Under the pieces are notes generated by a model. It was not told the DNA's origin. It made no database searches and worked only from the letters and a program-made list of their open reading frames with translations. A stretch of 64,000 nt of DNA from an uncultured bacterium (GTDB lineage: Bacteria; Verrucomicrobiota; Lentisphaeria; Victivallales; UBA1829), in assembly GCA_900548385.1 (NCBI GenBank), contig URKJ01000005.1, positions 67,793 through 131,792 on the forward strand, in the 5' to 3' direction. Both the position numbers and the translations under genes were made by a program. Of this stretch, positions 11,081 to 64,000 are shown piece after piece (the first letter of the stretch is position 1; each line of letters starts with the position of its first letter).

Positions 11081-11109
11081 TTGACATTTTCCGGGAAATA
11101 GAGTATAAT
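11081..11109 (+). promoter_or_regulatory. Consensus sigma70 promoter (TTGACA-N17-TATAAT) of the LacI/pseudopilin/GH operon
   Basis: Exact TTGACA at 11081-11086, a 17-nt spacer, then exact TATAAT at 11104-11109. This argues against the ORF-track start at 11108 and for ATG 11150. Confidence 0.6.
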
Positions 11110-11149
11110 GTATACCGGAAAACAAAGATATGGAAGGGCGTCAGCCGGT

Positions 11150-12145: not shown

Positions 12146-12870
12146 GGAAAAACAACTTTAGTCTTATAGAACTTCTGGTCGTAATCTCGATTATTGCAAT
12201 CCTTGCGGGTCTTCTGTTGCCGGCTTTGAACTCGGCAAGGGAAAAAGCACGGCAGATTACCTGTGTTTCCAACATGAAACAGATCGGAACCGCTTATATC
12301 GGCTATCTGGATTCTCACGATATGCAGTCTCCCGATTCGGACGGGAATCATCACTATGTCAGCCAGGCGTATTACGGAGACAGCGCTTACCGGAGGAGCG
12401 TCAGCGAAAATCCGGGGGCGAAAAAGTTTTATAATCCCGTCGGTTTTCTGTATTGCCCCAATGCGCAGACCTTTCCCGGTTCCCTCCACAGTTCCAGCTA
12501 TGTGCTTTCCCAGGGATTGGATCGCAATACGCATCCTTACGGAGGGAGCTGGTATTACGATTCCGACTCAAAACCTGTTGCTAAGAAAATGTATAAAGTG
12601 CGTCCGGACAGTGTGATTTTTGTGGAGAAACGCATGTATCAGCTCTGGGCTGGCTGTGCCGGCGGTGAGCGCGGAATTGTGCTGCCGTATTATACCCGTC
12701 CCGGTACAGGTTACGTTCCCGGAATGTCTGTGGAGAGCTGGAGCAGTTGCGGCAAATATCCCGGCTGGGCAAATCATGGCGGCAACATTACGTCGTTTCT
12801 GTTTTTCGATGGACACGCGGAGCTGATTCGATTCGGAACATCGTTCAATGATGATTGGATTAAAAAATAA
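12142..12870 (+). CDS. Prepilin-type N-terminal cleavage/methylation-domain protein with a C-terminal H-x(9-10)-DGH motif (DUF1559 / H-X9-DG pseudopilin-like family)
   Basis: The N-terminus reads [37 protein letters not shown]. The C-terminus carries [20 protein letters not shown] moved the start from the ORF-track 12061 to ATG 12142. Confidence 0.85.
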
Positions 12871-12888
12871 CCAAAGGAGAAAATAAAG

Positions 12889-13818: not shown

Positions 13819-13823
13819 CAGTT

Positions 13824-16775: not shown

Positions 16776-16790
16776 CTACGAGGAAGCTGT

Positions 16791-17708
16791 ATGAAAAGCA
16801 TTTTCAAACGTTATTCGAAAAATCCGATCCTCCGCCCGGAGGATATGCCGTCCGACTGTTTTGCCGTGTACAACGGCGGCGTGGTGAAAACGCATGGCGG
16901 ATACATCGCGCTGGTTCGCACGGAAGATTCCGTCCGTTATCAGCGCGTCTGGTGTGCGCGCAGTTCGGACGGATACCGTTTCTCCCCTGATCCGGAGCCG
17001 GTACGCTTTATCGCCGATGATATGGAGCAATACCGGAAATATACCGCCGATTCTTTTTTTGATCCGCGGATTAATCCGGTGGAAGGGAAATTTTATATTA
17101 CATATGCGGCGTATACGTTCCGTTACGGCTGCCGGATCGGGATCGGGGAAACGGAGGATTTCCGGACGGTCCGGCATATCTCGTTTCCGCATCATGTGCA
17201 GAACCGCAATGCGGTGCTGTTTCCGGAAAAGATCAATGACATGTATGTGATGCTGCACCGTCCCGAAACCGGCGGAATCGGCAATCTTTGGATTTCCCGC
17301 TCTCCCGATCTGCGGTTCTGGGGCGATTGTGAAGTCGTTGCCGATCGTGGAAGCGGACGTTGGGACAGTATCAAAATCGGGGCCGGAACTCCGCCGCTCA
17401 AAACGTCCCGCGGCTGGCTTGTCGTGACTCATGCGGTCGATTCCAACTGTTCCGGACAGTTCTATACGGTCGGAGCGGTTCTGCTGGATCTTCAGGAGCC
17501 GTCGAAACTTGTTGCCCGTTCCCGGATGTTGATGTGTCCGGAAATGCCGTATGAGACAAACGGTTTTGCGCCGAATGTGGTTTTTCCCTGCGGAGCGGTT
17601 CCGGAGCCGGACGGATCACTCAAGCTCTATTACGGAGCGGCGGACAATTTTGAGTGTCTTGCTGAAACGACCGTTCAGGCTCTGCTGGATGAATGTCATC
17701 CGGTCTGA
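16791..17708 (+). CDS. GH130-family glycoside phosphorylase/hydrolase (beta-mannoside-acting family)
   Basis: The 305-aa protein has no signal peptide. GH130-like motifs are KRYSKNPILRPEDMP, NGGVVKTHGGY, RNAVLFPEKI and KLYYGAADN. Confidence 0.8.
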   Translation: MKSIFKRYSKNPILRPEDMPSDCFAVYNGGVVKTHGGYIALVRTEDSVRYQRVWCARSSDGYRFSPDPEPVRFIADDMEQYRKYTADSFFDPRINPVEGKFYITYAAYTFRYGCRIGIGETEDFRTVRHISFPHHVQNRNAVLFPEKINDMYVMLHRPETGGIGNLWISRSPDLRFWGDCEVVADRGSGRWDSIKIGAGTPPLKTSRGWLVVTHAVDSNCSGQFYTVGAVLLDLQEPSKLVARSRMLMCPEMPYETNGFAPNVVFPCGAVPEPDGSLKLYYGAADNFECLAETTVQALLDECHPV

Positions 17709-26100: not shown

Positions 26101-26187
26101 TGTCGTTGTCTCCTGTCATAATCCGGTAATTTACATGGTTTCCCGGAAAAGACAACAGAAAACAGGAAATAGTTGCAAAAATATCGG

Positions 26188-27117
26188 TCATCCGCCGATG
26201 ATGTAATCGACCAGAACGTCCTGGATGCGGTATTTCCCGGCGAGGAGTTCCTTGAGCAGCGCCACCGCCCGGCGGGCAAGAGCGGGAAAATCCTGACGGA
26301 TCGTGAACTGACCGGGCATCAGAGTGTCGGAGATATGCGGAATGTGCCAGTGGATCAGTTCCACGTCCTGCGGGATACGCAGTCCCTGACGCCGGAGATC
26401 GGCAAACAGGCTCAGATCCGTCATTTCAAACGGGCAGATGATCGCGGTCAGTTTTTCCCTGCGGAGATAAGCGCCCCAGTCGGAGCGGTCCGACAGTCCG
26501 GCATGGAAGGGTGTGATGCCGGACTGTGCGGCGAGTTCCCGGAAGCACTCTTTCCGCCGGGTGTGGTTGAGATTTCCCGCCATCGGTTTCCGGTCGATGT
26601 AAAGAACGCGGGAGTGTCCTGCCGTGCGCAGGTGTGTCACGATGGCGGACATCGCCATGCGGTCGTTGGAACAGACGGAGTAGATGCGGTCGGAATGATA
26701 GCTGAAATCGTTGATGCAGACCAGCGGGATCGGGTTCAGTTCCGACCATCTGCGTGCGGTTTTTCCTGTGTAGCAGAGAGAAATCGCGCCGTCGATGATT
26801 TTTTCGTTGAAAGAACGGAGATGGTTTTCCGGGATCAGTTCGTACTGGAACTCTTCGCTGTCCAGCTGTGCGGAGAGAGCATGAATGATTGAGGTGTTGT
26901 AAAAGCAGACGTCGTTGCCGAATGCGGGAACGACGACTGCGATATTAGTTCTGTTTTTTCCGATATACCCGAGTTCGCGTGCGGCGGAGAGAATCCGGCT
27001 TCTGGTTTCAACCGCCACATTTCCGGCATCCGAGAGAGCCCGTGCCACGGTGCAGTGTGCGTATCCGGTCCGCCGGGCGATCTCCCGGACCGTGATTTTT
27101 TGCGTTTTTTTCAACAT
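26188..27117 (-). CDS. LacI-family transcriptional regulator
   Basis: The HTH reads [44 protein letters not shown]. The gene is divergent from the glycoside hydrolase gene at 27219. Confidence 0.85.
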
Positions 27118-27218: not shown

Positions 27219-29114
27219 ATGAATATTTTTGAGAAAAACGATTTTTTCACCGGATGCAACTACTGGGCGTCCCATGCCGGGATTTACATGTGGCGCAACT
27301 GGAGCGCGGCGGATGTGGAACGGGATCTGGAATTGCTTGCCGCACATAATATGAATGTTCTGCGCGTGTTTCCGCTCTGGCCCGATTTTCAGCCGCTGAC
27401 CCGTTTTTACGGCGGCTGCGGCAGCAGGCAGGAGTTCGGGCAGAACGGCGGGCCGCTTCAGAATCCCGCCTGTATGGATATGGAAATGATGGAACGTTTC
27501 CGGTTTCTCTGCGACGCCGCGGAAAAAAACGGACAGAAACTGATTGTCGGTCTGCTGACCGGATGGATGAGCGGGCGCCTTTTTGTTCCGCCGGCGCTGG
27601 AGACGAAAAACGTGCTTACGGACCCGGAAGCGATCCAGTGGGAAGTCCGTTTTGTGCGTTGCTTTGTCAAAGCGTTGAAAGATCATCCGGCGATTGCCGC
27701 GTGGGACCTCGGCAATGAATGCAACTGCATGGCAGAAACTTCCGGTCCTGCGGAAATGTGGTTGTGGATGAATTCCATCGCCTCCGCGATCCGTCTGGAG
27801 GATCCGGTCCGCCCGGTCGTGTCCGGAATGCACAGCATCAGTTCAAGTCAGTTCGACAGCCAGAATCTTCAGACGCAGGGCGAACTGATGGATGTTCTCA
27901 CGACGCATCCCTATCCGCTGTTTACACCGGAATGTCATCATGAACCGTTCAACACCATGCGCAACGAACTGCATTCGTCGGCGGAATCGCTTCTGTATCA
28001 GGGCGTTGCCGGAAAACCGTGCTTCCCGGAGGAAGCCGGGGCGCTTGGTCCGATGGTCTGTTCCGTAGACCGTGCGGCGCTGAATCTGCGTGCGGCGCTC
28101 TTTTCCTCCTGGGCAAACGGACTTTCCGGATTCCTCTGGTGGTGTGCGTTTGACCAGACTCATTTTGATTATCCGCCGTATGACTGGACCGCGATCGAAC
28201 GGGAACTCGGCTTGTTCCGTACGGACCGTTCTGCGAAACGGACGGCGGAAGTGATGCGCGATTTTACGGCATTCCGCAAGAGCCTTCCGTTCGAGCTGCC
28301 GCCGCGCAGAGTCGATGCGGTCTGTCTGATTTCAGAAAAGGAGAACGGCTGGATCAACGCGTTCGGTGCGTTTCTCCTTTCCCGTCAGGCAGGATTTGAT
28401 ATCCGGTTTGCCGGAGGGGAACAGGAACTGCCGGAATCGGATTTCTACCTGCTTCCGTCGGTTGGTTCCTCGCAGGCCTATTCCCGCAAGACCTGGCTGG
28501 CAGTGCTTGAGAAAGTCCGCGCCGGGGCGGATCTGCTTGTTTCCGTGGAAGGTTCCGGTTATCTTTCCACGTTCCGGGAAGTTACCGGTGTGGAGGTTGA
28601 CGCCCGTTACCGCGAAGCGTGCAATCTGGAATTTTCGTTGAAATCGCATCCGGAACAGACGATGCGCGGAGTCAGTGCGTTCCGCTCTCTGGTGGTTGCC
28701 GAACGCGCCGAAGTGCTTGCCGCGGATACGGACGGCAATCCGGTGATGACCGTTGCGGATTATGGCAGAGGCCGGATCTTTTTTGTGAATCTCGCCGTTG
28801 AAAAGATGTCGGTTGCGGAGATGCCCGGCTGTTTCCATGGCGAAGCGCTGAATCCGCTTTACCTGCTTTACCGCGAGGCGGCGGATCGTATCGGGATCAA
28901 GCGGACGGCAACGAAACTTCTGCCGGGTGTCGGGATCACGGAACATGCGTTGGAAGATGGCCGTACGGTCTGCGTCGCGGTCAATTATGAACCGGAAGAG
29001 GCTGTCTGTCCGGTGGCCGTGAACGGCAAAGTCGTTCAGACCTGGAACGGGGAATGGAGTTCCGGAACTCTGCGGATCGCCGGCAATGACGCCGCGGTTT
29101 TCCTGGTGGAATAA
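27219..29114 (+). CDS. Cytoplasmic clan GH-A glycoside hydrolase with a GH42-type middle/trimerisation-like domain (family not assigned)
   Basis: There is no signal peptide. The TIM-barrel start reads NMNVLRVFPLWPDFQP, and the acid/base-like motif is AAWDLGNECN. The second half is flavodoxin-like (VDAVCLISEKENGW...FYLLPSVG). Confidence 0.65.
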   Translation: MNIFEKNDFFTGCNYWASHAGIYMWRNWSAADVERDLELLAAHNMNVLRVFPLWPDFQPLTRFYGGCGSRQEFGQNGGPLQNPACMDMEMMERFRFLCDAAEKNGQKLIVGLLTGWMSGRLFVPPALETKNVLTDPEAIQWEVRFVRCFVKALKDHPAIAAWDLGNECNCMAETSGPAEMWLWMNSIASAIRLEDPVRPVVSGMHSISSSQFDSQNLQTQGELMDVLTTHPYPLFTPECHHEPFNTMRNELHSSAESLLYQGVAGKPCFPEEAGALGPMVCSVDRAALNLRAALFSSWANGLSGFLWWCAFDQTHFDYPPYDWTAIERELGLFRTDRSAKRTAEVMRDFTAFRKSLPFELPPRRVDAVCLISEKENGWINAFGAFLLSRQAGFDIRFAGGEQELPESDFYLLPSVGSSQAYSRKTWLAVLEKVRAGADLLVSVEGSGYLSTFREVTGVEVDARYREACNLEFSLKSHPEQTMRGVSAFRSLVVAERAEVLAADTDGNPVMTVADYGRGRIFFVNLAVEKMSVAEMPGCFHGEALNPLYLLYREAADRIGIKRTATKLLPGVGITEHALEDGRTVCVAVNYEPEEAVCPVAVNGKVVQTWNGEWSSGTLRIAGNDAAVFLVE

Positions 29115-30620: not shown

Positions 30621-32474
30621 CTATTCTTCCAGCAGTTCCGCAAGAATGGTTTCCGGTCCGGAAAATTCATACTCGAATTCCATCGTTTTCTGTTCCGGGA
30701 CCGGATTGCCCAGAAGAATACGGACTTTCGCCGGATGGTTGAGGCGGATTGTCCGTTTTCCGCTTTCGGTTGTATGCACCATCAGCAGATCGTGTGCCGC
30801 CCATACCGGGCACTGCATATCGGTGTAGAGATGCACTCCGGCATTCCGGGCGCAGCTTTGCAGCAGTTCCGGTGTCAGCAGGTCCGATTCCGGAATAAAG
30901 AGACTGTGCCAGTCCGGCATTTCCACTGCGGTGACGGATGATGTTCCGAAAGGAATTCCGGTGAGTTCTTTCATGCGTTCCGGGGTTTTGCGGAGACCGT
31001 CAAACAGTGCCGCGCCATAGGTCCAGATGACGGTCCGTCCGTTTTTCAGAATATGCTTATGCAGAATCGCTTCTTTTTCCGGAGTGAGCTCAAACAGGCC
31101 GGAGAAGATGATCAGCCTGAAGCGGGACAGATCAGGGATTCGCGGAATATCCCGGAAGGAAAAGACCCGGTACGGAGTTCCGATCCGGTTGCAGGAGACG
31201 ATCAGCTGGGGGTTGAGCTTGTGTGCAATGGTTTCCCTGTGTTCGTCATTGATGTAATAGGTGCTTTCCGGATCGACGATTACAGCGATTTCGGCTTCCG
31301 GTTCGCGCTCCGGAGATGCCAGACGGTCACTGATCCGTTTGAATTCGCCGATTTCATCGACCAGTTTTTGGGAATCATAATAACCGCCCCACATATCGAA
31401 CCACCAGAGCGATGCTCCGTGGAACAGCGAACGGCAGAACTCCCGCCGGTTGCCTGCAATATCGGCTTTTTCATCGGGCCATCCATGCATCCATTTCAGA
31501 CGGACATGCGGAGTCAGCTGATAGTTCGCAGTGCTGGTTCCGTGGTCGATCTCGTGAAAATAGTTTTTACCGAACAGATGAAGAGTTCCGTTCGGACTCA
31601 TAAATCCGGAGCCGCCGCCCATTTCCCTGTCATAGTAACAGCCGGGACTGATGAAAAAGTCAAGATCCGGGGAAGCGTACACCTTTTCGTATGCGAGATG
31701 TCCGCACTGCACCAGCCGTTCTCCGGTCAGCTGCAGGATATAGCCGAAAAATGCGCCGAGGGCGGTTGCGCGCGGAATAAGCGTCCGCGCTTCCCGCGCG
31801 AAAAGGCCGATTCCGTCTGCAATGCATTCGCTGATGAAACGCCAGTAACGCAGGGCGCCGGCATCGGTTTCCGGATCGCGCAGATGCAGCGGCGGATCGG
31901 AGCGGAACCGCCGGCTGAGCGTCGGGATGGAATCCGGTTCCCCGAATCCGTGTTCGCGGCTCCATTGGCGGTATGCGTCCAGCTTGCCCGCCAGTTCGCG
32001 CCCTTTGGAATAATCCATCCATTCATCCGTCATTCCACAGGCGAGAATATAACCCTTGATTCGTCCGGGATAAGCGGTTTCGAGGTGTGTGATGAGTGCC
32101 CGCATATAGTTCAGAGTTTCTTTGCGCCAGCGTTCCGTGGTGAGCGCATCGCTGAGTCCCATTGTGCTGTCGGCGAGAGTCCCCATCAGCTGACGGATCA
32201 GCCAGTTCGGGGAATTGAGGTCGATCATGCAAAGCAGTTCCGCTTCCGGAGCAACGGAGAGGATATCGTCGATCTGCCGGTCGGCGTGTCCGAATTCGCA
32301 GGCGTCGAAATAAAGCCAGTTCGGCGGATAATCAACATAGGGTTGACCGAGCGAATTGGTGGTATTGGATGGAAACACGCAGAACTGGCGGATTCCTGCA
32401 TCATAGAAACGCTTGACGGTATGCAGTTCTTTGCGGAATGAACGGTAAGCGAAAAACGGTTTTATCGGCATCAT
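30621..32474 (-). CDS. Cytoplasmic GH42-like glycoside hydrolase candidate (TIM barrel plus trimerisation-like domain, family unassigned)
   Basis: The 617-aa protein has no signal peptide. Candidate acid/base and nucleophile segments are GMTDEWMDY and YFHEIDH. The second half is GH42M-like (AEIAVIVDPESTYY...RLIIFSG). The function call is weak. Confidence 0.5.
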   Translation of the reverse strand: MMPIKPFFAYRSFRKELHTVKRFYDAGIRQFCVFPSNTTNSLGQPYVDYPPNWLYFDACEFGHADRQIDDILSVAPEAELLCMIDLNSPNWLIRQLMGTLADSTMGLSDALTTERWRKETLNYMRALITHLETAYPGRIKGYILACGMTDEWMDYSKGRELAGKLDAYRQWSREHGFGEPDSIPTLSRRFRSDPPLHLRDPETDAGALRYWRFISECIADGIGLFAREARTLIPRATALGAFFGYILQLTGERLVQCGHLAYEKVYASPDLDFFISPGCYYDREMGGGSGFMSPNGTLHLFGKNYFHEIDHGTSTANYQLTPHVRLKWMHGWPDEKADIAGNRREFCRSLFHGASLWWFDMWGGYYDSQKLVDEIGEFKRISDRLASPEREPEAEIAVIVDPESTYYINDEHRETIAHKLNPQLIVSCNRIGTPYRVFSFRDIPRIPDLSRFRLIIFSGLFELTPEKEAILHKHILKNGRTVIWTYGAALFDGLRKTPERMKELTGIPFGTSSVTAVEMPDWHSLFIPESDLLTPELLQSCARNAGVHLYTDMQCPVWAAHDLLMVHTTESGKRTIRLNHPAKVRILLGNPVPEQKTMEFEYEFSGPETILAELLEE

Positions 32475-32488
32475 GGCGGAATGGATTC

Positions 32489-33253
32489 CTATTTTATATG
32501 GTTGAGAGCGTATTTCCGGGAGATTTCACGTCCGTAGACCGTAAGAAATTCCACATCGAAACGCTGTTTTTCCTGAGTGACGAGATTGAACGGACGGGCG
32601 GAGGCGAAAGCCGCAATACATATCCCGTCCAGAAAAATCGGGACCGCGGTGATGCCCCACATCTCTGTGACAAGGGAAACGTATCCATTGCTGCGGACTT
32701 CATTAAAATAGCGGTTTCTGCTTTCCGCGTCTCCGAAAACTCTGTGCATGAACGAGGTCACAGAGAGTATCTCCGAATGGCGGCGGAACAGTTCTTCCCG
32801 TTCCGCGGGTGCCATGCAGGCGAGAAAGACGTGCCCCGAAGCGGTGAATGCGAGATCGTTGTTTCCCAGCGGGCGGAGGTCGATGGAAAGCGACGGACAG
32901 CCGTTGCACTCAAGCAGATTGTAGCGCTGTCCGTTGTACATCAGGGAAAATGTGATGAATGTTTCGAGCCGTTCGGCGGCTTTTTTGACATACGGCGCGG
33001 CAATCTGCCGGAGATCCGGTTCGTAGCGGACCTGTTTGCCGAATGCGAATGCGCGTATTCCCGCCCGGAATCCTTTCCGCGGCCCGGCGTGTTCCAGATA
33101 GCCGAGTTCGACCAGATCGGCTACCAGCCGCGCACAGGTCTGTTTATTGAGTCCGGAAATGGAAACCAGTTCCGGAAGCAGGACCGGTTTCGGGGAATGG
33201 GTTACAGCACATTCCAGAACCCGGAACATCTTGTCCAGTACTTTTGTTTTCAT
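32489..33253 (-). CDS. IclR-family transcriptional regulator
   Basis: A winged HTH (VLDKMFRVLECAV...LPELVSISGLNKQTCARLVADLVELGYLE) is followed by a GAF-like effector domain. The gene ends 14 nt upstream of the GH42-like gene. Confidence 0.85.
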   Translation of the reverse strand: MKTKVLDKMFRVLECAVTHSPKPVLLPELVSISGLNKQTCARLVADLVELGYLEHAGPRKGFRAGIRAFAFGKQVRYEPDLRQIAAPYVKKAAERLETFITFSLMYNGQRYNLLECNGCPSLSIDLRPLGNNDLAFTASGHVFLACMAPAEREELFRRHSEILSVTSFMHRVFGDAESRNRYFNEVRSNGYVSLVTEMWGITAVPIFLDGICIAAFASARPFNLVTQEKQRFDVEFLTVYGREISRKYALNHIK

Positions 33254-41512: not shown

Positions 41513-41513
41513 A

Positions 41514-54589: not shown

Positions 54590-54793
54590 ATGACGATAGA
54601 ATTCAATGGTGTTCGGGAAGATCTGGCGGAACCGGTGACGATTGCCGCGTTTTTCCGGTTCAAAGGGATTTGCAATCCCAATCTGATTCTGGAACTCAAT
54701 GGAGAAATCCTCGCGCCTGCCGCGGACTTGGAATGTATTCCGTTGAATGACGGCGACCGGTTGAATGCGTTTTCGCTGGTCGGAGGAGGATGA
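54590..54793 (+). CDS. thiS: ThiS/MoaD-type sulfur-carrier protein
   Basis: The 67-aa protein ends in the diglycine tail ...FSLVGGG. The ATG lies 3 nt after the upstream stop. Confidence 0.8.
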   Translation: MTIEFNGVREDLAEPVTIAAFFRFKGICNPNLILELNGEILAPAADLECIPLNDGDRLNAFSLVGGG

Positions 54794-54797
54794 GAAC

Positions 54798-55397
54798 ATG
54801 CAGGTGAACCGTTATCTGACGCGGGAGGAAGCGGAACGGCTGCAGGATGTGAAGATCGGCATCGGCGGAGCCGGCGGGCTCGGTTCAAATGCCGCCATGC
54901 ACCTGGTCCGGGCGGGGATCGGACACCTTGTCATTGCGGATTTCGATACAGTGAATGAAAGCAACCTGAACCGTCAGTTTTTCTTTTGTGATCAAGTCGG
55001 CAGGCTGAAGACGGAAGCGTTGGCGGAAAATCTGTGGCGGATCAATCCGGATCTCCGGCTGGAGCTTCATTCCGTGCGGGTGACGGCGGAAAACATTCTC
55101 CCGATTTTTGAAAGCTGTGATCTGTTCATCGAGGCGTTTGACGGAGTGGAATCGAAAGCCCTGTTTGTGCATGGGCTTCTGCCGCTCGGACGTCCGGTGA
55201 TCGCCGCAAGCGGACTTGCGGGATGGGGTGCGACCAATGCGATGCAGGTCCGCAAAGCAGGAAACAATCTGTATCTGGCAGGCGATTTGAAGTCCGGGAT
55301 CGGTGAAGAACTGGCTCCGCATTCCGCACGGGTCGGCATTGCCGCCGCGCAGGAGGCCAATATTGCGCTGGCGCTCCTGCTTGGAAAAGAGATCTGA
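54798..55397 (+). CDS. thiF: ThiF-family adenylyltransferase (short form)
   Basis: Motifs are GIGGAGGLGSNAAMHLVRAGIG and DFDTVNESNLNRQ. It is 199 aa from ATG 54798. Confidence 0.8.
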   Translation: MQVNRYLTREEAERLQDVKIGIGGAGGLGSNAAMHLVRAGIGHLVIADFDTVNESNLNRQFFFCDQVGRLKTEALAENLWRINPDLRLELHSVRVTAENILPIFESCDLFIEAFDGVESKALFVHGLLPLGRPVIAASGLAGWGATNAMQVRKAGNNLYLAGDLKSGIGEELAPHSARVGIAAAQEANIALALLLGKEI

Positions 55398-55400
55398 CGG

Positions 55401-56912
55401 TTACGGAGAACTGCAGCCGGGAGCCCTGCTGCTCCGGTTTCGCCGGAAAGCATTCAGCAGAATGCGTTTTCTGGGGTTGTCATTCGATGGTACAAGGGTG
55501 TCGTCCGTCGGTCCGGCGTATTCCAGACTCCAGATTTTTGCTTCCCGGAATGCGTGATAGGTCCAGTCCCAGCCGGCTTCTTCAAATGCCCGGATGCTGT
55601 CTTCCAGATACCGTTCCGCACCGGGTGCGCATGCGCGGGCGGAGAATTCACCGACATAAATTTTTGCCTGATGTCTCCGCTGAAATTCCCGGACGGGCCG
55701 CAGGCGCGCTTTCAATGACTCAAAATCCCAGTTTGCTCCGAGAAATTTTCCGGGATAAGACGGAAGTGTCTTTCCCGCTTTCCGGTCCTTTTCGGTGAAA
55801 CGGGTATGCGTGTACACAAACGGATCGTATGAATGGAGCTGATAGATGATGTTTTTCAGTTTCAGCGGCGAAAGGTACGGGTAGGTGTACGGGGAACAGA
55901 GATGATTGGATTCGATATAGATGGGCGTTTCCGGGTCAATTCTGCGGATTGCCTCCGCCGCCAGCCGCTGAACTTCCCAGTAACCGAACCGGACGGGCCG
56001 TTGTTCGTTGGGTTCATTGATGAGATCATAGCCGTACAATGCCGGATGTCCCTTGAATTTGGCGGCAATGCGTTCCCAGATCCGGATGAAGAATTGTACC
56101 CGTTCCTCATCATCGAAGAGACAGGGATTGTTCCGGGAATTCGCCGTGCCGGGAACGGTGTGCAGGTCGATGATTATGGCGATGCCGTATTTCCTGCCGA
56201 GATCAAGAACGTTCGGGATTACCTTTTCGATTTTTTCGTCGATGAATTTCCGATACCGGAGCGGATCGCGTGCGATGGCTTCGGATGTGTTCAGCTGAAG
56301 CCGCATCAGATTGACGTTCCAGTCACGCAGGACTTTGAAGTTTTCCTCGTTTGCCTGATCGGTGATCGGGCTCATTACGCCGCGCCGGAGCGGACGGTTT
56401 TTCACGGCGTCGGAGTATTCGCAGAGGTGATCGACATTCTGTTTCGTGAATTTCACTGAAACTTTGAACGTGCGCAGATCATACTCCATTCTTCCGGAAA
56501 CATCCTGCATTCCGAAGCGCAGGTATCCGGTTCCGGCATCCGGTTCAATCATTGCCCCGAATGCGAGTTTCGTATTTCCGAATGAACCGTATCTTCCGTT
56601 GCTTTCCGCGTAATGCCGTTTGCCGTCCGGAGTGGTGTAGGAGAGAATGAACTTCTGCCCGAAATGCCGTTGCGGCGGTTTTGAAATGTTGTCGCCCCGT
56701 CCCATGACTTCCCAGACTGCATAGCGGTTGCGGAACGGTTTCAGATCAACCGTGAACAAGGCTCCGTGTATTCCTTTGGCGGAACCGGTCGGGATTTCGC
56801 AGATGACTTTGCCGTCTTTGATCTGCGAATACTCCGACATTTTGGCTTTTCCGAGCTCAAGAGCGGAGACGTTCAGAACGGAGAGCAAGAAGAGCAGGAA
56901 CAGATGCTTCAT
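55401..56912 (-). CDS. Secreted GH5 (cellulase-family) glycoside hydrolase with an N-terminal beta-sandwich domain, paralog A
   Basis: A signal peptide (MKHLFLLFLLSVLNVSA) is present. The acid/base motif is YGYDLINEPN and the nucleophile motif is IYVGEFSA. The start is ATG 56912. Confidence 0.85.
   Translation of the reverse strand: MKHLFLLFLLSVLNVSALELGKAKMSEYSQIKDGKVICEIPTGSAKGIHGALFTVDLKPFRNRYAVWEVMGRGDNISKPPQRHFGQKFILSYTTPDGKRHYAESNGRYGSFGNTKLAFGAMIEPDAGTGYLRFGMQDVSGRMEYDLRTFKVSVKFTKQNVDHLCEYSDAVKNRPLRRGVMSPITDQANEENFKVLRDWNVNLMRLQLNTSEAIARDPLRYRKFIDEKIEKVIPNVLDLGRKYGIAIIIDLHTVPGTANSRNNPCLFDDEERVQFFIRIWERIAAKFKGHPALYGYDLINEPNEQRPVRFGYWEVQRLAAEAIRRIDPETPIYIESNHLCSPYTYPYLSPLKLKNIIYQLHSYDPFVYTHTRFTEKDRKAGKTLPSYPGKFLGANWDFESLKARLRPVREFQRRHQAKIYVGEFSARACAPGAERYLEDSIRAFEEAGWDWTYHAFREAKIWSLEYAGPTDDTLVPSNDNPRKRILLNAFRRNRSSRAPGCSSP
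56350..56425. repeat. 76-nt tract identical to 57866-57941 (copy A)
   Basis: Base-by-base comparison of the two GH5 paralogs gives 76/76 identity at a constant offset of 1516 nt. Confidence 0.9.
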
Positions 56913-56916
56913 CGGA

Positions 56917-58449
56917 TTATTTTCCTTTCCTGTCATTGTTTCGGAATGCGTTCAGCAGGACTTCTTTGCGCGGAGTGGAGGGGACCTGTTTCATGGAATC
57001 CAGCGCGGGACCTTCGTGTTCCACGCTCCAGAGAGCGCCTTCCCGGAATGCGTGGTAGGTCCAGTCCCAGCCGTATTCCTCGAAAACGCGGATGCAGTCC
57101 CGCAGATAAGCGTCTGCTCCCGGTGCGCAGGCAAACGCGGAGAATTCGCCGACATAGATTTTCGCCCGGTGCTTCTTTTCAAACTCCCGGACATACGAAA
57201 GTTTTTTCCGGATCTGTACGAGATCCGGTCCCCAGAATGTGCCGTAGTAGGTTCCGGGATAGATCCGGTATTTTATTTTTCCGGTTTCAAGATCGCGTTT
57301 TTTCTGAATAAAATAGTGAGTGTAATCGAACGGTTCGTAGAAATGGCACTGATAAATGATGTTTTTCAGTTTCAGCGGGGAAAGGAAATAGAATGCCAGA
57401 GGACTGTTCATCATGTTGGATTCGATATAGATGGGCGTTTCCGGGTCGATTTCCCGGATGGCTTCCGCGGCGCGGCGCTGGAGTTCCAGATAGTCGGTTT
57501 TTGCCCGGCGGGTTTGTTTGGGTTCGTTGATGAGGTCGTAACCGTACAGTGCGGGATGTCCTTTGAATTTGGCCGCGATCCGCCGCCAGATGTGGAGGAA
57601 TTCATTCACAGCGGCTTCATTGCCGTAAATGGCGTCGGATTCTTCCGTCATGCGGGCGCTGCCGGGGACGGTGTGAAGATCAATGATGATCATGACACCG
57701 TATTTTTTCCCCAGATCCAGTACGCGGGGAATGACATCGTTGATTTTTGTGTCGATGAATTTCCGGTATGCCTGCAAGTCGGTCCGGGCGAGTTCGTCGG
57801 AAGTGTTCAGCTGAAGCCGCATCAGATTGACGTTCCAGCTGCGCAGAACCTTGAAATTTTCCTCATTTGCCTGATCGGTGATCGGGCTCATTACGCCGCG
57901 CCGGAGCGGACGGTTTTTCACGGCGTCGGAGTATTCGCAGATATGATCCCGGTTTTCTTTGCGGAACAGACGTTCCATAAGCAGGGAGTCCAGATCGAAT
58001 TCGACCCGTCCGGTACAATGTTCCAATCGGAGTTCCGCGCGGCAGGACTCCGCGTGCGGATCCAGCGAGATGGTACCCGGAAGGAGCCCGGATCCGCTTT
58101 TCCGGGCTTGGAGAAAACCGCCGCCGAGCCGTTCGTGGCTGTTATCATCCGCCGGATAGGAGAGACGAAGCCGTATTCCGGCTTTCGGATTGTTCAGATT
58201 GCCTGTCAACCTGGCTTTGAAACGGAGTCTTCCGGTCAGCATTTCTGCCCGGTATGGTTTCAGATTGAGTCGAAATGTGGGGAATGTGACCGGGGCTTTG
58301 CTGTTTTCCGGAAGAGTGAGGATAAGGCGTCTGTTTTCGACGACGGCATTGGACCCCGGATTCAGGTCCAGAATTCCCGGCTGGAACGCAGCTGCTGCGG
58401 AGAGCAGGGAAAACGGAAGAAGGGCGGTGCTCAGAAAAAACAGTTTCAT
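56917..58449 (-). CDS. Secreted GH5 (cellulase-family) glycoside hydrolase with a divergent N-terminal beta-sandwich domain, paralog B
   Basis: A signal peptide (MKLFFLSTALLPFSLLSAAAA) is present. The acid/base motif is YGYDLINEPK and the nucleophile motif is IYVGEFSA. Confidence 0.85.
   Translation of the reverse strand: MKLFFLSTALLPFSLLSAAAAFQPGILDLNPGSNAVVENRRLILTLPENSKAPVTFPTFRLNLKPYRAEMLTGRLRFKARLTGNLNNPKAGIRLRLSYPADDNSHERLGGGFLQARKSGSGLLPGTISLDPHAESCRAELRLEHCTGRVEFDLDSLLMERLFRKENRDHICEYSDAVKNRPLRRGVMSPITDQANEENFKVLRSWNVNLMRLQLNTSDELARTDLQAYRKFIDTKINDVIPRVLDLGKKYGVMIIIDLHTVPGSARMTEESDAIYGNEAAVNEFLHIWRRIAAKFKGHPALYGYDLINEPKQTRRAKTDYLELQRRAAEAIREIDPETPIYIESNMMNSPLAFYFLSPLKLKNIIYQCHFYEPFDYTHYFIQKKRDLETGKIKYRIYPGTYYGTFWGPDLVQIRKKLSYVREFEKKHRAKIYVGEFSAFACAPGADAYLRDCIRVFEEYGWDWTYHAFREGALWSVEHEGPALDSMKQVPSTPRKEVLLNAFRNNDRKGK
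57866..57941. repeat. 76-nt tract identical to 56350-56425 (copy B)
   Basis: See copy A. The flanking ~70 nt on the upstream side are also near-identical, including a further 36-nt exact match. Confidence 0.9.
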
Positions 58450-58460
58450 GTGCGGGTTCC

Positions 58461-59219
58461 TCAGCGTTCAATTTCATGGATGACGGCATCCGCGAACAGA
58501 TTGTCGTTCCGGAGCTGATAATAACTTTGAGCGGAAACGTGTCCGTCTGCGGCTGCGACATTGCACCGTTTCGTGTGACGGGTTACGACACCGACGATCT
58601 GTTTCGTGCTTGCGCCGTTATTGTTCGGGTAAGCAACGGTCACCGGCTGAAAGTCGAATTCCCATGAAGTTGTGTTTATAACCCGCTGGGAATCGGAGAG
58701 CATTGCGAACGCGGAGGGACTTGTCGGAATATACAGGCGCCATTCATTGCCCAGTACGCGGGCATCGGAGGAGGTCCCGATCTTTTTCGTATCAATGCTG
58801 CTTGCCATGGAGAGCCACCAGCCGTTGGAAACGCCGTAGCCGGTCCCCTTGTTGTCATCTTTCCACCCGGCGGCAGCTCTTTCCGCGGAGGTGAACGGTT
58901 TTGCGGGACAACGGGTGTTTTTATAAGTATTGATATATCCGAGCTTGTAAAGTCTGCTTTTCCATAGTTCCTTATCGCCGGTGTTATCCGGGCAGTTCCA
59001 TGGGGTGAAGCCGTTGAAGTCGTTGGCATAGGCATGAAAAGTGAGAGCCAGCTGTTTCAGATTATTGACACAGCTGATCGCCTGCGCCTTGCTCTTGGCG
59101 GCATTAAGGGCCGGCAGAAGCATTCCGGATAGAATTGCAATTATTGCAATTACGATGAGGAGTTCTATAAGGGTGAAGTTCGTTATGGTGCTCTGCAGTT
59201 TTTTACGGGGGATCATCAT
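58461..59219 (-). CDS. Prepilin-type N-terminal cleavage/methylation-domain protein with an H-X9-DG motif (pseudopilin-like)
   Basis: The N-terminus reads [35 protein letters not shown]. The C-terminus has [13 protein letters not shown], an exact H-x9-DG. The start overlaps the LacI stop as ATGA. Confidence 0.85.
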
Positions 59220-60232
59220 CTTTCTCCTTTCAGTTTCCGGACGGTCGCGCCCGGATGATAATTGAATTTGAACTTATATTCTTTTGTCGTCATGTCGCCG
59301 GAAAGCAGGAGCTCGACCGCTTTGGCGGCGCGTGACGGCGTATCCATTTCAAAACGGGTTACATCCAGAGGAAATGCATAACGGGGCAGTGCGGATGAGA
59401 GTGTGATCAGGGAAATATCCTCCGGAATGCGGAGTCCCAGCTGTGCGGCTTCATAAAGCAGAATTCGGCACATGCGTTCCTGCGTGCAGAGCCACGCCGT
59501 GTGACGGCCTGCTTTCAGCGCTTTTCGCAACTGTGCGGAATCGTCGAAACAATCGCTGATCACATCTTTGGCAAGATCGAATTCCTGGCAGGCATCCTGA
59601 ATGCCCGTCAGGAGTGCCCGGATCCGCATAGTATGGACTTCGTCTATGGATTTAAGTGACTTCAGAACACCGAGTCCGCCGAAAAATCCGATATGGCGGT
59701 GTCCGTTTTTCCGCAGCAGCCGGGCGGCATCGTATCCTGCCTGCCAATGATCAGGATGAAGGATCGGTCCTTCGAAAACGTCGGTTTCTCCGATCCCGAC
59801 GACCCGTATGCCGTGTTCCAACAGGTCCCGGATATGAGGAGCAATGAAATTCACCATACCGAGCACGATGACACAGGCAGGTTTCAGGGAGAGGACCCGC
59901 TGCAGAAGTTCCGCACTGCTTCCGAGAAGAAAAACCGTATCGAAGCCGTGTTTCCGCAGTCCTTCCCGGATCGCTGCGGGGACGCTGTTGTCCGACTCAT
60001 GGTCCAGCAGAGCCGGAGACGAAATGAAAATTGCGCTTTTTCCGGTGTCACGGATTGAGAGACGCTCTTTGATGTTGTTGCTGCGCCACCCGATCTCTTC
60101 AATGTATTGCAGAACTTTCCTGCGGATTTCCGCGCGTACGCCGGGCTGTCCGTTGATTGCCCGCGACGCGGTGCCGAGTCCGACTCCGCAATTCCTTGCA
60201 ATATCCTTGATTGTGATCTTTTTCTCTGTCAT
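59216..60232 (-). CDS. LacI-family transcriptional regulator
   Basis: The HTH reads [45 protein letters not shown] sugar-binding fold follows. Confidence 0.85.
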
Positions 60233-60274
60233 TTTCCGTCCTTGACTGATAACTGGAAATGTCCTTCTTTGTTA

Positions 60275-60303
60275 ATTATACAACAAAACCGGAAAAAAGT
60301 CAA
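60275..60303 (-). promoter_or_regulatory. Near-consensus sigma70 promoter of the LacI/pseudopilin/GH5 operon (TTGACT-N17-TATAAT on the minus strand)
   Basis: The plus strand shows AGTCAA at 60298-60303 and ATTATA at 60275-60280, with a 17-nt spacer. Confidence 0.55.
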
Positions 60304-60313
60304 GAGGTAAAAC

Positions 60314-60327
60314 TGGAAATATTTCCA
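60314..60327. promoter_or_regulatory. Perfect 14-bp palindrome TGGAAATATTTCCA (candidate LacI operator)
   Basis: The sequence is exactly self-complementary and lies 10 nt upstream of the -35. A related site, CTGGAAATGTCC, lies at 60253-60264 between the -10 and the start codon. AACTGGAAAT occurs twice (60251 and 60311). Confidence 0.5.
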
Positions 60328-60378: not shown

Positions 60379-63300
60379 TCATTGGATTATCATATTGCGA
60401 ATCTCCAGTTCAACGTTTTCCGAGTCTTTCCCCAAAGCCTGAACCAGCAGTTCCCCGCGCAGGCGGCACTCCGGACGGAATTTTTTTGTATTAAGGAGGA
60501 TTCTGTATTTTTGGAATTGCTTTCCACCCGGTAGAGTGAGCCGGATTTGTTCCGCATGTTTCCAGTCTGAGCATGGAATAACTATTTTGATTTGTAAGGG
60601 TTTGGATGCTCCTGCCTCCAGAGTCAGAGAGTGGAACTCCTCCGGCGATGCACCTTTCCGGAAGAAACAGATGAATCCAGGTCTGGGTGATGAGCCTTTC
60701 TTTTCAAACCGGGGAAAACGATAGGAAATTCGCGTCTCGTCGGATTTAATGTTTCCTTTGTCCGGCAGATGATAAGAACCGATTACGGAAATCCTCACAT
60801 CTTTGTTCGGAATTCGGACTGGAGAAGCGGAACATTCCTCTCCCGTGACTGCAAGCAGAATCGGGACCGATCTTTTTGTCGGCAGATAGTCAATGTTCTC
60901 TTTGTAATAGGCCCGCGCGGACAGGAAGTCGATGGAGACGATTTTTTTCTCCGGATGCGGATTCTCCCATTCAGCGACAAACGTTGTTCCGGAACGCTGG
61001 CTGTTGCTCCCTTGAATTCCCAGCTTGGCCTTCGGGAGCCCCCAGACGAACCACCAGTCAGCGACGTTTTCCTGTCCCGTCATAGGATAATCAATCCGGG
61101 AACCATCGGCATAATGGATCCTGTAATAGGCACAAACACTGTTGTTGCCCCACGCCGTTGTATGCAGGAAAAAAAGACGGGAAAAGAAACCGTCTGTCCG
61201 GATTCCCCGGACTGCTTCGGGAAAATAGGGTCTTTCCGTTCCGCAAAGGACAATGCAGGACTTTCCTCCGTTTCTTTCCGGTGCAATAATTCGGAATGGA
61301 ACTCCGGCGGCAGTCACCATTCCTGTTTGAACATGGCGGAAATCATTGTTGCCCTGGTCGGTCCATCCTCCTTTGCGATCACCGTCCTTCTCATCCCGGA
61401 ATGAGGTTGTGACGTAAGGTGTGAGTTCAATAACGCGGCATCTGTTTTTTACGGTTGTATATTCATCATTTCTATTCATGGAAAACGGGAGCGTTTTTGT
61501 CCAGAAAGCGCGGGTTTCCAATGCATAGCGGAGCAGATTGACATAAAACGCCGCGGCGGAACTGTCGCAGTCATGCAGTCCGGCTGCGTGCAGTTGGGAA
61601 GCAATGATGCGCCCCTTTCCGAGCGAGGATTCCATAATGGCTGTTCTCAAGTCACGATTCCCGAGTCCGGATACGCCTTTTGCCGCAATCGTATTCGGCG
61701 TGAAAGAGATCAGGGAATGAGTCAGCAGAGCACCATTTTTCTGTTTATTGTTCCATGTATCGAAATTGCGCTGGTCAAGTCCTGCGAATACGGGATGATC
61801 CGGCGAAACCAGATCAATGAAACTCATATTGCTGGTGACCAAATAGGAACCGTCCGGGAAACGGGTATCCGGATTCTGCTGTTCCAGAATCAGAATGACA
61901 CCGCCCGTGGTGAGAAAACGTTCCATTTTTGAAGTCATGCTCAGATTTACCGGTTTTCCGGGAACAAGTTCCGCAGGAACGATTAACGCATCACCGCTGT
62001 TCAGAGATTCGGTTGAAGAGACTGTTGTTGCTGTAACCCCGTGACGCTTCAGAAGATCGCTGGCTGCGGTGACATTTCCGGAATGTCCGGTGTCAAGCAG
62101 GAAAACGCGGCGGATCGGATTGATTTTCTGTTTCCGGATAGAGGCGTCCGCCAGAAAAATATTATAATAGTTCCGGGCGATCTCCTCGCCTTTGCTGTTA
62201 CGAAGAACCAACCGAAGTTGACGGTGCCCGTTGATTCCTCCTGGAAGTTTCAGGCGAATCGGCTGTTCATATTTAGAAAAAGAAACGGCTTCCGGGATTC
62301 GAAATGAACCGATGGAAACGGTTTGTTCATTCAAATCAGCAAGTTGCAGTTCCAGTGTCAACCCGCAAACGGTTCGTCCGGAAACGTTTACTACCGCCAT
62401 GGTCCATTCGGAAGACTCCCCGCCGAACAGGTTCCCCGGAAAGAGTCCCGTTTCATTGACCAGCATGGGGAAAATCTTTTGTGAAGTTAATGTGATGAAG
62501 TCCATATCAGGAGCAGGATTCCATGCAGCATAACCGTTCATTCTCCCGTCCAGCAGAATTGTGCTGAAAATCCGCGGCATGAATTTTTGCATTCCGTATG
62601 CTCCACCCCGTTCGGGATCCAAAGCTGCCGCAAGACCGATGGAACCGCTGAATCCGATACCCTGTGGTCTGCTCCAGGAGGAAGATGTGGCTTTTTCCGC
62701 ATATTTCCAGTACGCTTTCCGGTCTCCCGGGCGAAAGGCTCTGTCTGCTTGAATTCCCCACGAAAAGCCAATGAACTCCCATCCGACCCAGGGGAACGGA
62801 AGTTTCTTGTGCCCTGGAGCGTAAATCTCCAGCAGCTTGCGGTGATAGGCATTCAGTTCTCCGCGCATAGAGGTCCATTGGGCGGCAAGACCGGTATAGC
62901 TGTGAGTATCCACCAGATCGGTATCAAGCCGGCGGGAACCGTAACTGTATATGGTTGCCGAACCGGAATACGCACTGACTGGACGCCCGGAACGGTCAAT
63001 GCGCCGGACCAGCCGCACCAGTTCACCGAACCGGTCTGCAATCGCGGGATCCTGAATATGCGATACCTCGTTTCCCATGCTCCAGAGTACAACGGATGGA
63101 TGATTGTACGAATTTTCCACAAATTCCGTTACTTCCCGTTCCATATAAGGTTTCCATTTTTTATGGTCGATCTGAGCCGTGAAAGCCCAGCCCCATTCAG
63201 CGGCGATCAATGTGCCGCATTCATCCGCCAGTTCCAAAACGCGGTTGCGGATCGGCATGTGTGCCGTTCTGAGAATGAAATACCCCCGGTTCAGAAAACC

Positions 63301-64000
63301 GAGCAGATACTTTTCCGCAAGCGCATCCAGTTTCTTCGACCAGGGAGTATTTTCAAAATGGTGGGAAGAAATATTGGCGGAACACAGAAAAACAGGCTCT
63401 CCGTTGAATTCGAACCTGCCATTGCAGATACGGAAATCCCGATATCCGAACCGGAAGGATTCCGCATCGATGCTTCTTCCGTCCCGTTCCAAAATGAGAG
63501 TGGAAAAATAGAGGTACGGGTTTCCGATTTGCCACGGAACCGGATTCTCCAAAGCAACTTCAAGGCTTCCGGTATTCCTGCCGGGAGAAAGCGGTTTCTC
63601 TTTTGTGAATTCTCCGATTTTCTTTCCCGCTGATTGTCTCATGGCGGATGTGACAACATTTCTGAGTCGGACCGTCAAGTGTTTTCCCGTTTGATTTTCG
63701 ATGATGTAATCCATACGGATCCGCTGGTTTTTCCAGTCCGGAGTTACAAGGGCTTTTGCAATCCGTAGTTCCGGCTCCAAGGATAGCGTAACATCTCCCG
63801 TTATTCCGCCCGCGATCAGCCCCATCCACCATTGTGAACCATAAATGTGATATGCCGGACCGGTGCCGAACTGTGGACCATTGTCCGTCAGAATGCGCAG
63901 GGTGAGGACATTGCGTCCCGGACGGACAGCATCCGTTGCATCAATCTCAAAAGACGTATACTGTCCATGGTGGCTGCCGATTCTTTTTCCGTTCAGCCAG
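60379..64000 (-). CDS. GH2-family glycoside hydrolase (beta-galactosidase/beta-mannosidase-like), large multidomain, with its 5' end outside the window
   Basis: The frame stays open from 63825 to the window edge and encodes the GH2 sugar-binding-domain signature WLNGKRIGSHHGQYTSFEIDATD. The catalytic region has NHPSVVLWSMGNE. More than 1200 aa are visible. Confidence 0.85.
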   Translation of the reverse strand, partial: WLNGKRIGSHHGQYTSFEIDATDAVRPGRNVLTLRILTDNGPQFGTGPAYHIYGSQWWMGLIAGGITGDVTLSLEPELRIAKALVTPDWKNQRIRMDYIIENQTGKHLTVRLRNVVTSAMRQSAGKKIGEFTKEKPLSPGRNTGSLEVALENPVPWQIGNPYLYFSTLILERDGRSIDAESFRFGYRDFRICNGRFEFNGEPVFLCSANISSHHFENTPWSKKLDALAEKYLLGFLNRGYFILRTAHMPIRNRVLELADECGTLIAAEWGWAFTAQIDHKKWKPYMEREVTEFVENSYNHPSVVLWSMGNEVSHIQDPAIADRFGELVRLVRRIDRSGRPVSAYSGSATIYSYGSRRLDTDLVDTHSYTGLAAQWTSMRGELNAYHRKLLEIYAPGHKKLPFPWVGWEFIGFSWGIQADRAFRPGDRKAYWKYAEKATSSSWSRPQGIGFSGSIGLAAALDPERGGAYGMQKFMPRIFSTILLDGRMNGYAAWNPAPDMDFITLTSQKIFPMLVNETGLFPGNLFGGESSEWTMAVVNVSGRTVCGLTLELQLADLNEQTVSIGSFRIPEAVSFSKYEQPIRLKLPGGINGHRQLRLVLRNSKGEEIARNYYNIFLADASIRKQKINPIRRVFLLDTGHSGNVTAASDLLKRHGVTATTVSSTESLNSGDALIVPAELVPGKPVNLSMTSKMERFLTTGGVILILEQQNPDTRFPDGSYLVTSNMSFIDLVSPDHPVFAGLDQRNFDTWNNKQKNGALLTHSLISFTPNTIAAKGVSGLGNRDLRTAIMESSLGKGRIIASQLHAAGLHDCDSSAAAFYVNLLRYALETRAFWTKTLPFSMNRNDEYTTVKNRCRVIELTPYVTTSFRDEKDGDRKGGWTDQGNNDFRHVQTGMVTAAGVPFRIIAPERNGGKSCIVLCGTERPYFPEAVRGIRTDGFFSRLFFLHTTAWGNNSVCAYYRIHYADGSRIDYPMTGQENVADWWFVWGLPKAKLGIQGSNSQRSGTTFVAEWENPHPEKKIVSIDFLSARAYYKENIDYLPTKRSVPILLAVTGEECSASPVRIPNKDVRISVIGSYHLPDKGNIKSDETRISYRFPRFEKKGSSPRPGFICFFRKGASPEEFHSLTLEAGASKPLQIKIVIPCSDWKHAEQIRLTLPGGKQFQKYRILLNTKKFRPECRLRGELLVQALGKDSENVELEIRNMIIQ

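Follow-up and report, generated by a model that had tools for sequence, protein, structure and literature searches.

A recurrent operon architecture of sugar-binding regulator, pilin-like protein and glycan-active enzymes in Lentisphaerota

Introduction

Why does a gene for a pilin-like protein stand between the gene of a sugar-binding regulator and the genes of exported glycoside hydrolases? The question is raised by positions 55401..60327 of a 64,000-nucleotide stretch of DNA (contig URKJ01000005.1 of assembly GCA_900548385.1; this whole stretch is called the window), where four closely packed genes on the minus strand encode the LacI-type regulator LacI-B, the pilin-like protein PilB and two enzymes of glycoside hydrolase (GH) family 5, GH5-1 and GH5-2. 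The arrangement belongs to a lineage-wide architecture, which consists of a regulator with a LacI- or GntR-type helix-turn-helix (HTH) and a periplasmic-binding-protein (PBP) fold, an operon-specific pilin-like protein of the DUF1559/H-X9-DG family, and carbohydrate-active enzymes (CAZymes) or carbohydrate-binding module (CBM) proteins that mostly bear signal peptides. The component families (LacI, GH5, DUF1559/H-X9-DG) are known; for the architecture no precedent was found. No description of a cassette of regulator, pilin and CAZyme was encountered in the literature that was searched, with most subscription journals lying outside the search. The function of the DUF1559 family itself is still described as unknown (PMC10632474).

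Results

Organisation of the operon

The following elements were located on the minus strand, given in the order of transcription.

60275..60303, minus strand: sigma-70-like promoter of the LacI-B operon, TTGACT-17-TATAAT, 11/12 matches, 43 nt upstream of the LacI-B ATG
59216..60232, minus strand: LacI-B, 338 aa, LacI HTH and Peripla_BP_3, first gene of the operon
58461..59219, minus strand: PilB, 252 aa, DUF1559/H-X9-DG pseudopilin-like protein, a leader followed by FTLIELL
56917..58449, minus strand: GH5-1, 510 aa, GH5 (PF00150), signal peptide (MKLFFLSTALLPFSLLSAAAA)
55401..56936, minus strand: GH5-2, 511 aa, or 503 aa from M9 at 56912, GH5 (PF00150), signal peptide, last gene of the operon

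At the junction of regulator and pilin, the ATG of PilB (59219-59217) and the TGA stop of LacI-B (59218-59216) share nucleotides within AAA GGA GAA AGA TGA. A second in-frame ATG is present at 59216-59214, by which the overlap is either 4 nt or 1 nt. The PilB stop and the GH5-1 start are 11 nt apart and the gap between GH5-1 and GH5-2 is about 4 nt, where M9 at 56912, the start called on public contigs (503 aa), is likely the true start of GH5-2. Because of the ATGA overlap, these two short gaps and the one strong promoter upstream of LacI-B, 55401..60327 is a single operon of a human-gut Victivallales (Lentisphaerota) bacterium; no comparable promoter was found inside it. An identical PilB protein is present on many human-gut metagenome contigs. 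The proteins of at least 90% identity carry the NCBI names cellulase family glycosylhydrolase (MEI3038364), DUF1559 domain-containing protein (MEI3038365) and LacI family DNA-binding transcriptional regulator (MEI3038366.1); each bears the organism name ‘Victivallales bacterium’, and their genes share a contig of 4.56 Mb.

Upon comparison with Pfam, LacI-B scored above the cut-offs of PF00356 and PF13377, as did the two other LacI-type regulators of the window, LacI-A and LacI-C. The two GH5 enzymes are 52% identical to each other, score 82.6 and 82.5 bits with PF00150 (cut-off 23.5) and both contain the acid/base motif Asn-Glu-Pro as DLINEP. Their best solved relatives, 8ag9, 8b3y and 8anx (E ~1e-48), are each named ‘endoglucanase’. 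Signal peptides were called throughout this study by a heuristic based on hydrophobicity and charge, not by SignalP.

A second cassette in the window

The order of the operon is repeated in cassette A (11108..17708): a LacI gene, an ATGA overlap, a pilin gene, then genes for enzymes and CBM proteins. The first-pass annotation of the window, made from the letters alone, had listed 55401-60327 as the second instance of one cassette, and the domain matches, motif scan and signal-peptide calls bear this out.

11081..11109, plus strand: cassette A promoter, TTGACA-17-TATAAT, whose spacer holds the palindrome TTTCCGGGAAA (11088-11098)
11108..12145, plus strand: LacI-A, LacI HTH and Peripla_BP_3
12142..12870, plus strand: PilA, 242 aa, DUF1559 pseudopilin-like protein, leader MRKNN followed by FSLIELL, H-x10-DG variant, ATGA overlap with LacI-A
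12889..13818, plus strand: CBM4_9 protein, 309 aa, signal peptide
13824..16775, plus strand: CBM4_9/GH42-like/CBM9 protein, 983 aa, signal peptide, start at MNRLFLSLL
16791..17708, plus strand: GH130 beta-mannoside phosphorylase without signal peptide, the cytoplasmic member of the cassette

The first ATG of LacI-A (11108) overlaps the -10 box TATAAT (11104-11109), so the real start of this regulator is probably M15 at 11150.

A six-frame motif scan of the 64 kb located exactly two prepilin motifs, at 59177 and 12157, each directly behind a LacI gene; the window holds three LacI genes, two of which are thus followed by a pilin. Signal peptides were called on GH5-1, GH5-2, the 309-aa CBM protein and the 983-aa GH/CBM9 protein. 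They were not called by the same heuristic on the GH130 enzyme, on the hydrolase of locus C or on cytoplasmic controls. The statement that the enzymes downstream of the pilin are exported in both loci therefore stood for these four proteins and failed for the GH130 enzyme. The third LacI locus, locus C, is a divergent pair with neither a pilin nor a signal peptide, just as had been annotated.

26188..27117, minus strand: LacI-C, comparison locus, no pseudopilin, divergent from the hydrolase gene
27219..29114, plus strand: TIM-barrel hydrolase of locus C, without signal peptide

Another regulator-enzyme pair of the window without a pilin is formed by an IclR-like regulator (32489..33253, minus strand) and a 617-aa protein (30621..32474, minus strand), which has no Pfam match and no signal peptide.

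The junctions of the two cassettes had been given weight for their identity. In cassette A, the PilA ATG (12142-12144) and the LacI-A stop (12143-12145) overlap at 12142-12145, and the same ATGA stop/start is indeed present at 59216-59219, yet at least five further same-strand gene pairs in the window share it (19026-19029, 21936-21939, 42956-42959, 43654-43657 and 51637-51640). ATGA is the commonest type of gene overlap. The overlap means co-translation within one operon and nothing more specific, and it was rejected as a special signal because it is common in the window. A membrane-subunit operon related to complex I and Mrp (40022-46598; Complex1_49kDa, Proton_antipo_M) also contains several 4-nt overlaps and served as a control for the frequency of ATGA.

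A recent duplication of cassettes A and B was considered as the origin of the identical junctions. It was rejected since LacI-A and LacI-B are 23% identical, which is non-significant, and the likeness of PilA and PilB is confined to the N-terminal 70 residues.

The pilin-like protein

PilA and PilB both have a class III signal, with a short basic leader, a hydrophobic helix, Phe at +1 and Glu at +5. With the prepilin N-terminal domain TIGR02532, PilB and PilA scored 21.6 and 19.2 bits, both above the cut-off of 16.3, while Pfam N_methyl was just below its cut-off for PilB. PF07596 (DUF1559) gave 34.5 bits for PilB and 27.1 bits for PilA against a gathering score of 23.3, with only the first 31-43 of 268 model positions matched. 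Within NCBIfam, the N-terminal 50 residues matched GspG (TIGR01710) best, at 27.2 and 29.4 bits over model positions 3-55 of 134 only; with a cut-off of 88.85, neither PilA nor PilB qualifies as a GspG equivalog. TIGR04294 (H-X9-DG) scored 11.4 bits on PilB, below its cut-off of 19, and did not match PilA, which has ten intervening residues.

In alignments of 34 and 121 sequences, F15 (+1) is invariant, E19 (+5) is nearly invariant and the hydrophobic segment of 24 residues is extremely conserved. C50 and C104-P105 are invariant as well, Y128 and D176 nearly so, and H215-x9-D225-G226-H227 of PilB aligns with nearly invariant columns of the family. The pair C50/C104 fits, as expected, a domain that would lie outside the cytoplasm. 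The globular domains are hypervariable between paralogs and enriched in Trp (2.9% versus 1.4%), in Tyr (6.3% versus 3.3%) and in Asn.

AlphaFold models (pLDDT 89.9 and 90.4) consist of a long N-terminal helix, an alpha/beta loop and an antiparallel sheet, a predicted topology that is pilin-like. A profile search of solved structures matched known pilins at the N-terminal helix only. The name of PF07596, ‘SBP_bac_10’, might suggest a solute-binding protein; this was rejected, the confident model being a helix with a beta-sheet and not the two-lobed fold of a binding protein.

The family is very large. A search with PilB retained more than 7,400 of 8,000 scored candidates at E <= 1e-3, and among 1.84 billion cluster representatives there were 210,179 (50%-identity clusters) at E <= 1e-3, 37,881 at 1e-10 and four at 1e-30.

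Distribution of the architecture

A scan of species-representative genomes gave at least 80 loci, drawn from Lentisphaerota, Verrucomicrobiota, Planctomycetota and further phyla; the source species was not among the loci listed. The annotated surroundings of genes orthologous or paralogous to PilA and PilB were added to them. When the open reading frames (ORFs) ending just upstream of pilin motifs in the listed loci were compared with Pfam, Peripla_BP_3 (10 members) and GntR (8 members) ranked top, and all ten loci with these upstream regulators belonged to Lentisphaerota. Single-seed phmmer was too insensitive for the detection of upstream regulators and an iterated hidden Markov model (HMM) was used instead. 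With this model, a sugar-binding regulator was found directly upstream of 23 of the 57 distinct Lentisphaerota pilin genes in the listed loci, versus none of 64 in other phyla. The 4-nt overlap is possible at eight of these 23 junctions; several others have gaps of 2-13 nt.

On the downstream side, the next ORF of at least 200 aa on the same strand was assessed for each Lentisphaerota pilin, with the following outcome.

Signal peptide: 29
No signal peptide: 8
Another pilin: 5
None found: 7

A signal peptide was thus present on 29/37 next genes, versus 70/245 (70 with, 175 without; 29%) in a background obtained by the same procedure after any long ORF. The odds ratio is 9.1 with p = 9e-9, a value which is indicative only and overstates independence, as the loci are phylogenetically related and the calls of signal peptides crude. 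Most of the proteins encoded downstream are carbohydrate-active, among them GH5, GH2, GH78, GH123, DUF4838, sulfatase, polysaccharide lyase, beta-helix, CBM4_9 and CBM9 proteins. The proposal that the pseudopilin tracks with exported enzymes, made from the three LacI loci of the window, was in this way upheld in a larger sample.

These counts also bear on the possibility that DUF1559 genes are so numerous that their adjacency to LacI and CAZyme genes carries no function. The size of the family (the 210,179 clusters mentioned above), the richness of these genomes in CAZymes and the commonness of ATGA overlaps would all allow this. It is contradicted by the position of both window pilins directly behind two of the three LacI genes, by the 23/57 versus 0/64 upstream regulators together with the odds ratio of 9 downstream, and by synteny that is kept across species at 50-60% protein identity, so that a chance neighbourhood is highly improbable.

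The cassette also recurs elsewhere: three copies were found within 18.7 kb of locus L095 and more in L097-L099. Tandem pairs of pilin-like genes stand ahead of the enzymes at L048 (9980-11602), L040 (3240-5074), L058, L072 and L008, and 5/49 pilins precede another pilin. At L015 (2575-2790), a single ORF has two in-frame prepilin motifs 186 nt apart (GFTLIELLVVTAQF at the first), possibly a remnant of a duplicated 5' end.

Conservation of the pairing between pilin and enzymes

In other species, two GH5 genes invariably come after the ortholog of PilB (53-58% identical), whereas the gene upstream varies: a LacI gene with a gap of 73 nt (L088), a LacI gene then a GH28 gene (L087), or a divergent AraC gene and an inserted transposase (L090). 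Orthologs of PilA (64-81% identical) retain the whole series of regulator, 4-nt overlap, pilin, CBM4_9, GH/CBM9 and GH130. P0019 and P0020 each precede a GH51-like enzyme. Over 861 pairs of pilins, similarity of the globular domain tracks homology of the downstream protein, which is mostly orthologous synteny at about 50% identity. The conserved unit in these gene orders is the pilin with its enzymes, even where the regulator changes.

DDE transposase genes adjoin cassettes of PilB orthologs at L090 (3312-4622) and L088 (7787-9196). At L090 the transposase gene takes the place where other loci have the regulator, with a melibiase fragment on one side and the pilin on the other.

Promoters and candidate operators

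A perfect palindrome was located next to the LacI-B promoter.

60315..60326: GGAAATATTTCC, a perfect palindrome of 12 bp adjoining the -35 box on its upstream side, candidate operator of LacI-B

The promoters of both LacI-headed cassettes hold palindromes of the GGAAA/TTTCC type, and related palindromes are kept upstream of LacI in orthologous loci: TGGAAATATTTCCA at L088 and, in the ortholog of cassette A at L094, ATTTTCCGGAAAAT. Palindromes are also present at L095 (20 bp, perfect) and L098 (18 bp). Based on these sites we infer that each regulator would control the operon that it heads. The sequence TTTCCNGGAAA occurs three times in the window, where 0.17 copies are expected; the other two copies are located within the start of the gene at 21936 (21980-21990) and between LacI-C and uvrA (26139-26149).

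Neighbouring cassettes and genes

The genes at either end of the operon are the following.

54765..55397, plus strand: ThiF-like gene, the next after GH5-2 and convergent with it
60379..64000, minus strand: 3' part of a GH2 gene that runs off the window; 1364 aa in full on public contigs, signal peptide

According to the public contigs, this GH2 gene belongs to a neighbouring cassette with a GntR-like regulator (347 aa), a pseudopilin (258 aa) and the GH2 enzyme. The next cassette along encodes a GntR-HTH/PBP regulator of 364 aa, a pilin of 226 aa and a PcRGLX-like protein of 1426 aa that has a signal peptide. The region beyond the operon is covered by L001 (2893-8841) and L003 (4-6099). The genome thus has at least four regulator-pilin-enzyme cassettes in about 75 kb. 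In some strains (L003 and L004), small ORFs stand in place of the GH2 cassette.

Discussion

A possible role for the pilin-like protein

As a tentative answer to the question of why a pilin-like gene stands in these operons, we prefer the reading that its product is an operon-specific adaptor, by which exported glycan-active proteins are coupled to a shared type II secretion system (T2SS) or type IV pilus-like machine, for transit of the outer membrane or for display at a tip. The regulator would repress its own promoter until a sugar ligand appears, upon which regulator, pilin-like protein and enzymes would be produced together. The pilin-like protein would insert in the inner membrane by its class III signal, with the globular domain, which contains Cys and is rich in Trp and Tyr, exposed on the non-cytoplasmic side. 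In that position the protein would serve as the operon's own adaptor subunit of a shared machine encoded elsewhere, and couple the exported proteins of the operon to that machine, so that they cross the outer membrane or are displayed on the tip of a short pilus. Of the readings considered, an adaptor is the one that explains best why the gene directly after the pilin has a signal peptide and why pilin and enzymes stay paired across species.

Several observations weigh against it. No gene for T2SS or type IV pilus machinery was found in the window or in the annotated 10-kb flanks; among the loci listed, T2SS-F was encountered beside pilins only at the Omnitrophota locus L085 and at none from Lentisphaerota. 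To our knowledge there is no precedent for a pseudopilin that is dedicated to a single cargo. For the globular domain, Foldseek returned no solved structure of significant similarity. The cassettes at L017 (a PGI-like protein, then a radical SAM protein) and L026 (a sulfatase) and cassette A (GH130) include proteins that lack a signal peptide, and the independence assumed in the p-value for signal peptides is overstated. Surface display or export and glycan capture both fit the data. A further point concerns the processing of the pilins.

Residue -1 of the prepilin motif

For cleavage by canonical prepilin peptidases, Gly (rarely Ala) is required at position -1. In PilA and PilB this residue is Asn. 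Gly is found at -1 in 2/49 Lentisphaerota pilins and in 3/119 close homologs, and the residue is R, S, K, N, I or P in 47/49 Lentisphaerota pilins. Of the 64 pilins from Verrucomicrobiota, Planctomycetota and other phyla, 63 have Gly or Ala there, and F+1 and E+5 are kept in both groups. The distribution suggests a lineage-specific change in prepilin processing: either a peptidase of different specificity acts in this lineage or the pilins are left uncleaved. As the pilins are without the canonical Gly, cleavage and assembly into a pseudopilus filament are unproven, which also counts against an adaptor on a pilus-like machine. No description of this anomaly was found in the literature covered by the search, which left out most subscription journals.

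Were the pilins uncleaved, they might be bitopic proteins of the inner membrane, whose periplasmic domain would work together with the enzymes of its own operon or with their products, for instance as an anchor, scaffold, chaperone or sensor. The contrast at -1 between 47/49 Lentisphaerota and 63/64 other pilins would then be explained; a low copy number is suggested by the coupling of its translation to that of a regulator of low abundance, and the TIGR01710 (GspG) score is far under its cut-off. For a mere anchor, the near-invariant F+1 and E+5 and the conserved 24-residue segment in more than 100 paralogs are hard to explain. Conservation of this kind is expected from processing, N-methylation and the packing of helices in a filament, and homologs from sister phyla retain the canonical G or A. 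We consider this alternative unlikely.

Export of enzymes or capture of glycans

The adaptor reading has a competitor in which the pilin itself handles the substrate. The operon-specific pilin would be the substrate-recognition subunit of a retracting pilus and act in glycan capture and uptake, as an analogue of SusD in a lineage without SusC/SusD, with enzymes that degrade the glycan and a regulator that senses the product. Pilins serve such purposes elsewhere: the type IV-like pilus locus MUL2 of Akkermansiaceae serves attachment to glycans and their uptake (PMC13174399, PMC12418764), and in C. bescii xylan induces the major pilin, which binds directly to both xylan and cellulose (bioRxiv 10.1101/614800). 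Kiritimatiella, of a related phylum, is without TonB-dependent glycan uptake (PMC5148204). Globular domains that are rich in Trp, Tyr and Asn and hypervariable between paralogs would suit a binding subunit, and a pairing of pilin with enzyme family fits substrate specificity equally to cargo specificity. The cytoplasmic enzymes (GH130, the L026 sulfatase, the L017 PGI-like protein) are accommodated better by capture than by an adaptor. On the other hand, no glycan-binding fold or known CBM was detected in the pilin by Pfam or Foldseek, cassette A has a separate secreted CBM protein of its own, and an enrichment of signal peptides on the gene directly after the pilin is not something that capture specifically predicts. 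Like the adaptor, capture is affected by the missing Gly at -1 and by the absence of machinery from the surveyed regions. On balance, glycan capture seems somewhat less likely than an adaptor as the role of the pilin.

The suggestion of secretion or surface tethering, with which the first-pass annotation had ended, can thus be kept in part. The association with signal peptides and the conserved pairing speak for it; the ATGA overlap is uninformative, and the exceptions, the equal fit of glycan capture and the missing Gly at -1 speak against it.

A wider proposal spans both an adaptor and a capturing pilin. The Victivallales may possess a pilus-based equivalent of the polysaccharide utilisation locus (PUL), in which a pilin diversified per operon works on a shared machine that exports or displays enzymes or captures glycan, with a prepilin peptidase that cleaves without Gly at -1 and is of a kind unseen in studied systems. 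This is put forward as conceivable, and with some reserve.

Significance

The findings bear on how T2SS and pilus machines choose their cargo and on how bacteria of the PVC superphylum (Planctomycetota, Verrucomicrobiota, Chlamydiota) without SusC/SusD handle polysaccharides at the envelope. Dozens of CAZyme operons with a cognate pilin-like gene offer natural triples of pilin, enzyme and substrate for tests of specificity. In Lentisphaerota genomes, operons for polysaccharide utilisation could be predicted by their pilin gene, in the way that SusC/SusD pairs are used for Bacteroidota. That Gly at -1 was lost across the lineage while F+1 and E+5 were kept points to a variant of prepilin processing that is so far unstudied. 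As Victivallales are common in human and animal guts, the operons are relevant to the breakdown of fibre and glycans by the microbiome.

Comparison with known systems

PilA and PilB share matches to PF07596 and TIGR02532 with the DUF1559/H-X9-DG family of the PVC superphylum, and PilB has the pattern C...CP...YG...D...H-x9-DG-H. In contrast to the members from other phyla, those of Lentisphaerota are without G or A at -1, and about 40% of them stand directly behind a sugar-binding regulator, versus 0/64.

The pseudopilins of the T2SS (GspG-K) resemble them in the class III signal, F+1, E+5 and the association with Sec-exported hydrolases, which are typical T2SS cargo. The window pilins differ in being double the length of GspG, in occurring once per operon beside cargo and regulator, and in having neither a gsp cluster nor Gly at -1.

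Minor pilins present the large Sec-signal protein PilY1 at the tip of the type IV pilus, which is the closest functional analogy. In PilY1 complexes, too, pilin-like genes are co-encoded with a large non-pilin protein with a Sec signal, and surface display of PilY1 depends on the minor pilins. Here the large proteins are GH or CBM proteins, there is usually one pilin gene and not four, and the units number dozens per genome.

MUL2 of Akkermansiaceae and the PilA of Caldicellulosiruptor are likewise pilins tied to the use of polysaccharides, being glycan-induced or needed for it (PMC13174399; bioRxiv 10.1101/614800). Those are single conserved loci with machinery (PilM etc.), not one diversified pilin per CAZyme operon, and the likeness drawn here is one of function.

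Among the cassette genes of the window and related loci, Pfam detected no SusC/SusD or TonB-dependent transporter. The likeness to the PULs of Bacteroidota is in the layout: both are substrate-specific, self-regulated clusters with a sensor or regulator, a recurrent envelope tag from an expanded family and secreted CAZymes. In the operons described here, however, the tag is pilin-like and the regulator is a cytoplasmic protein of the LacI or GntR type.

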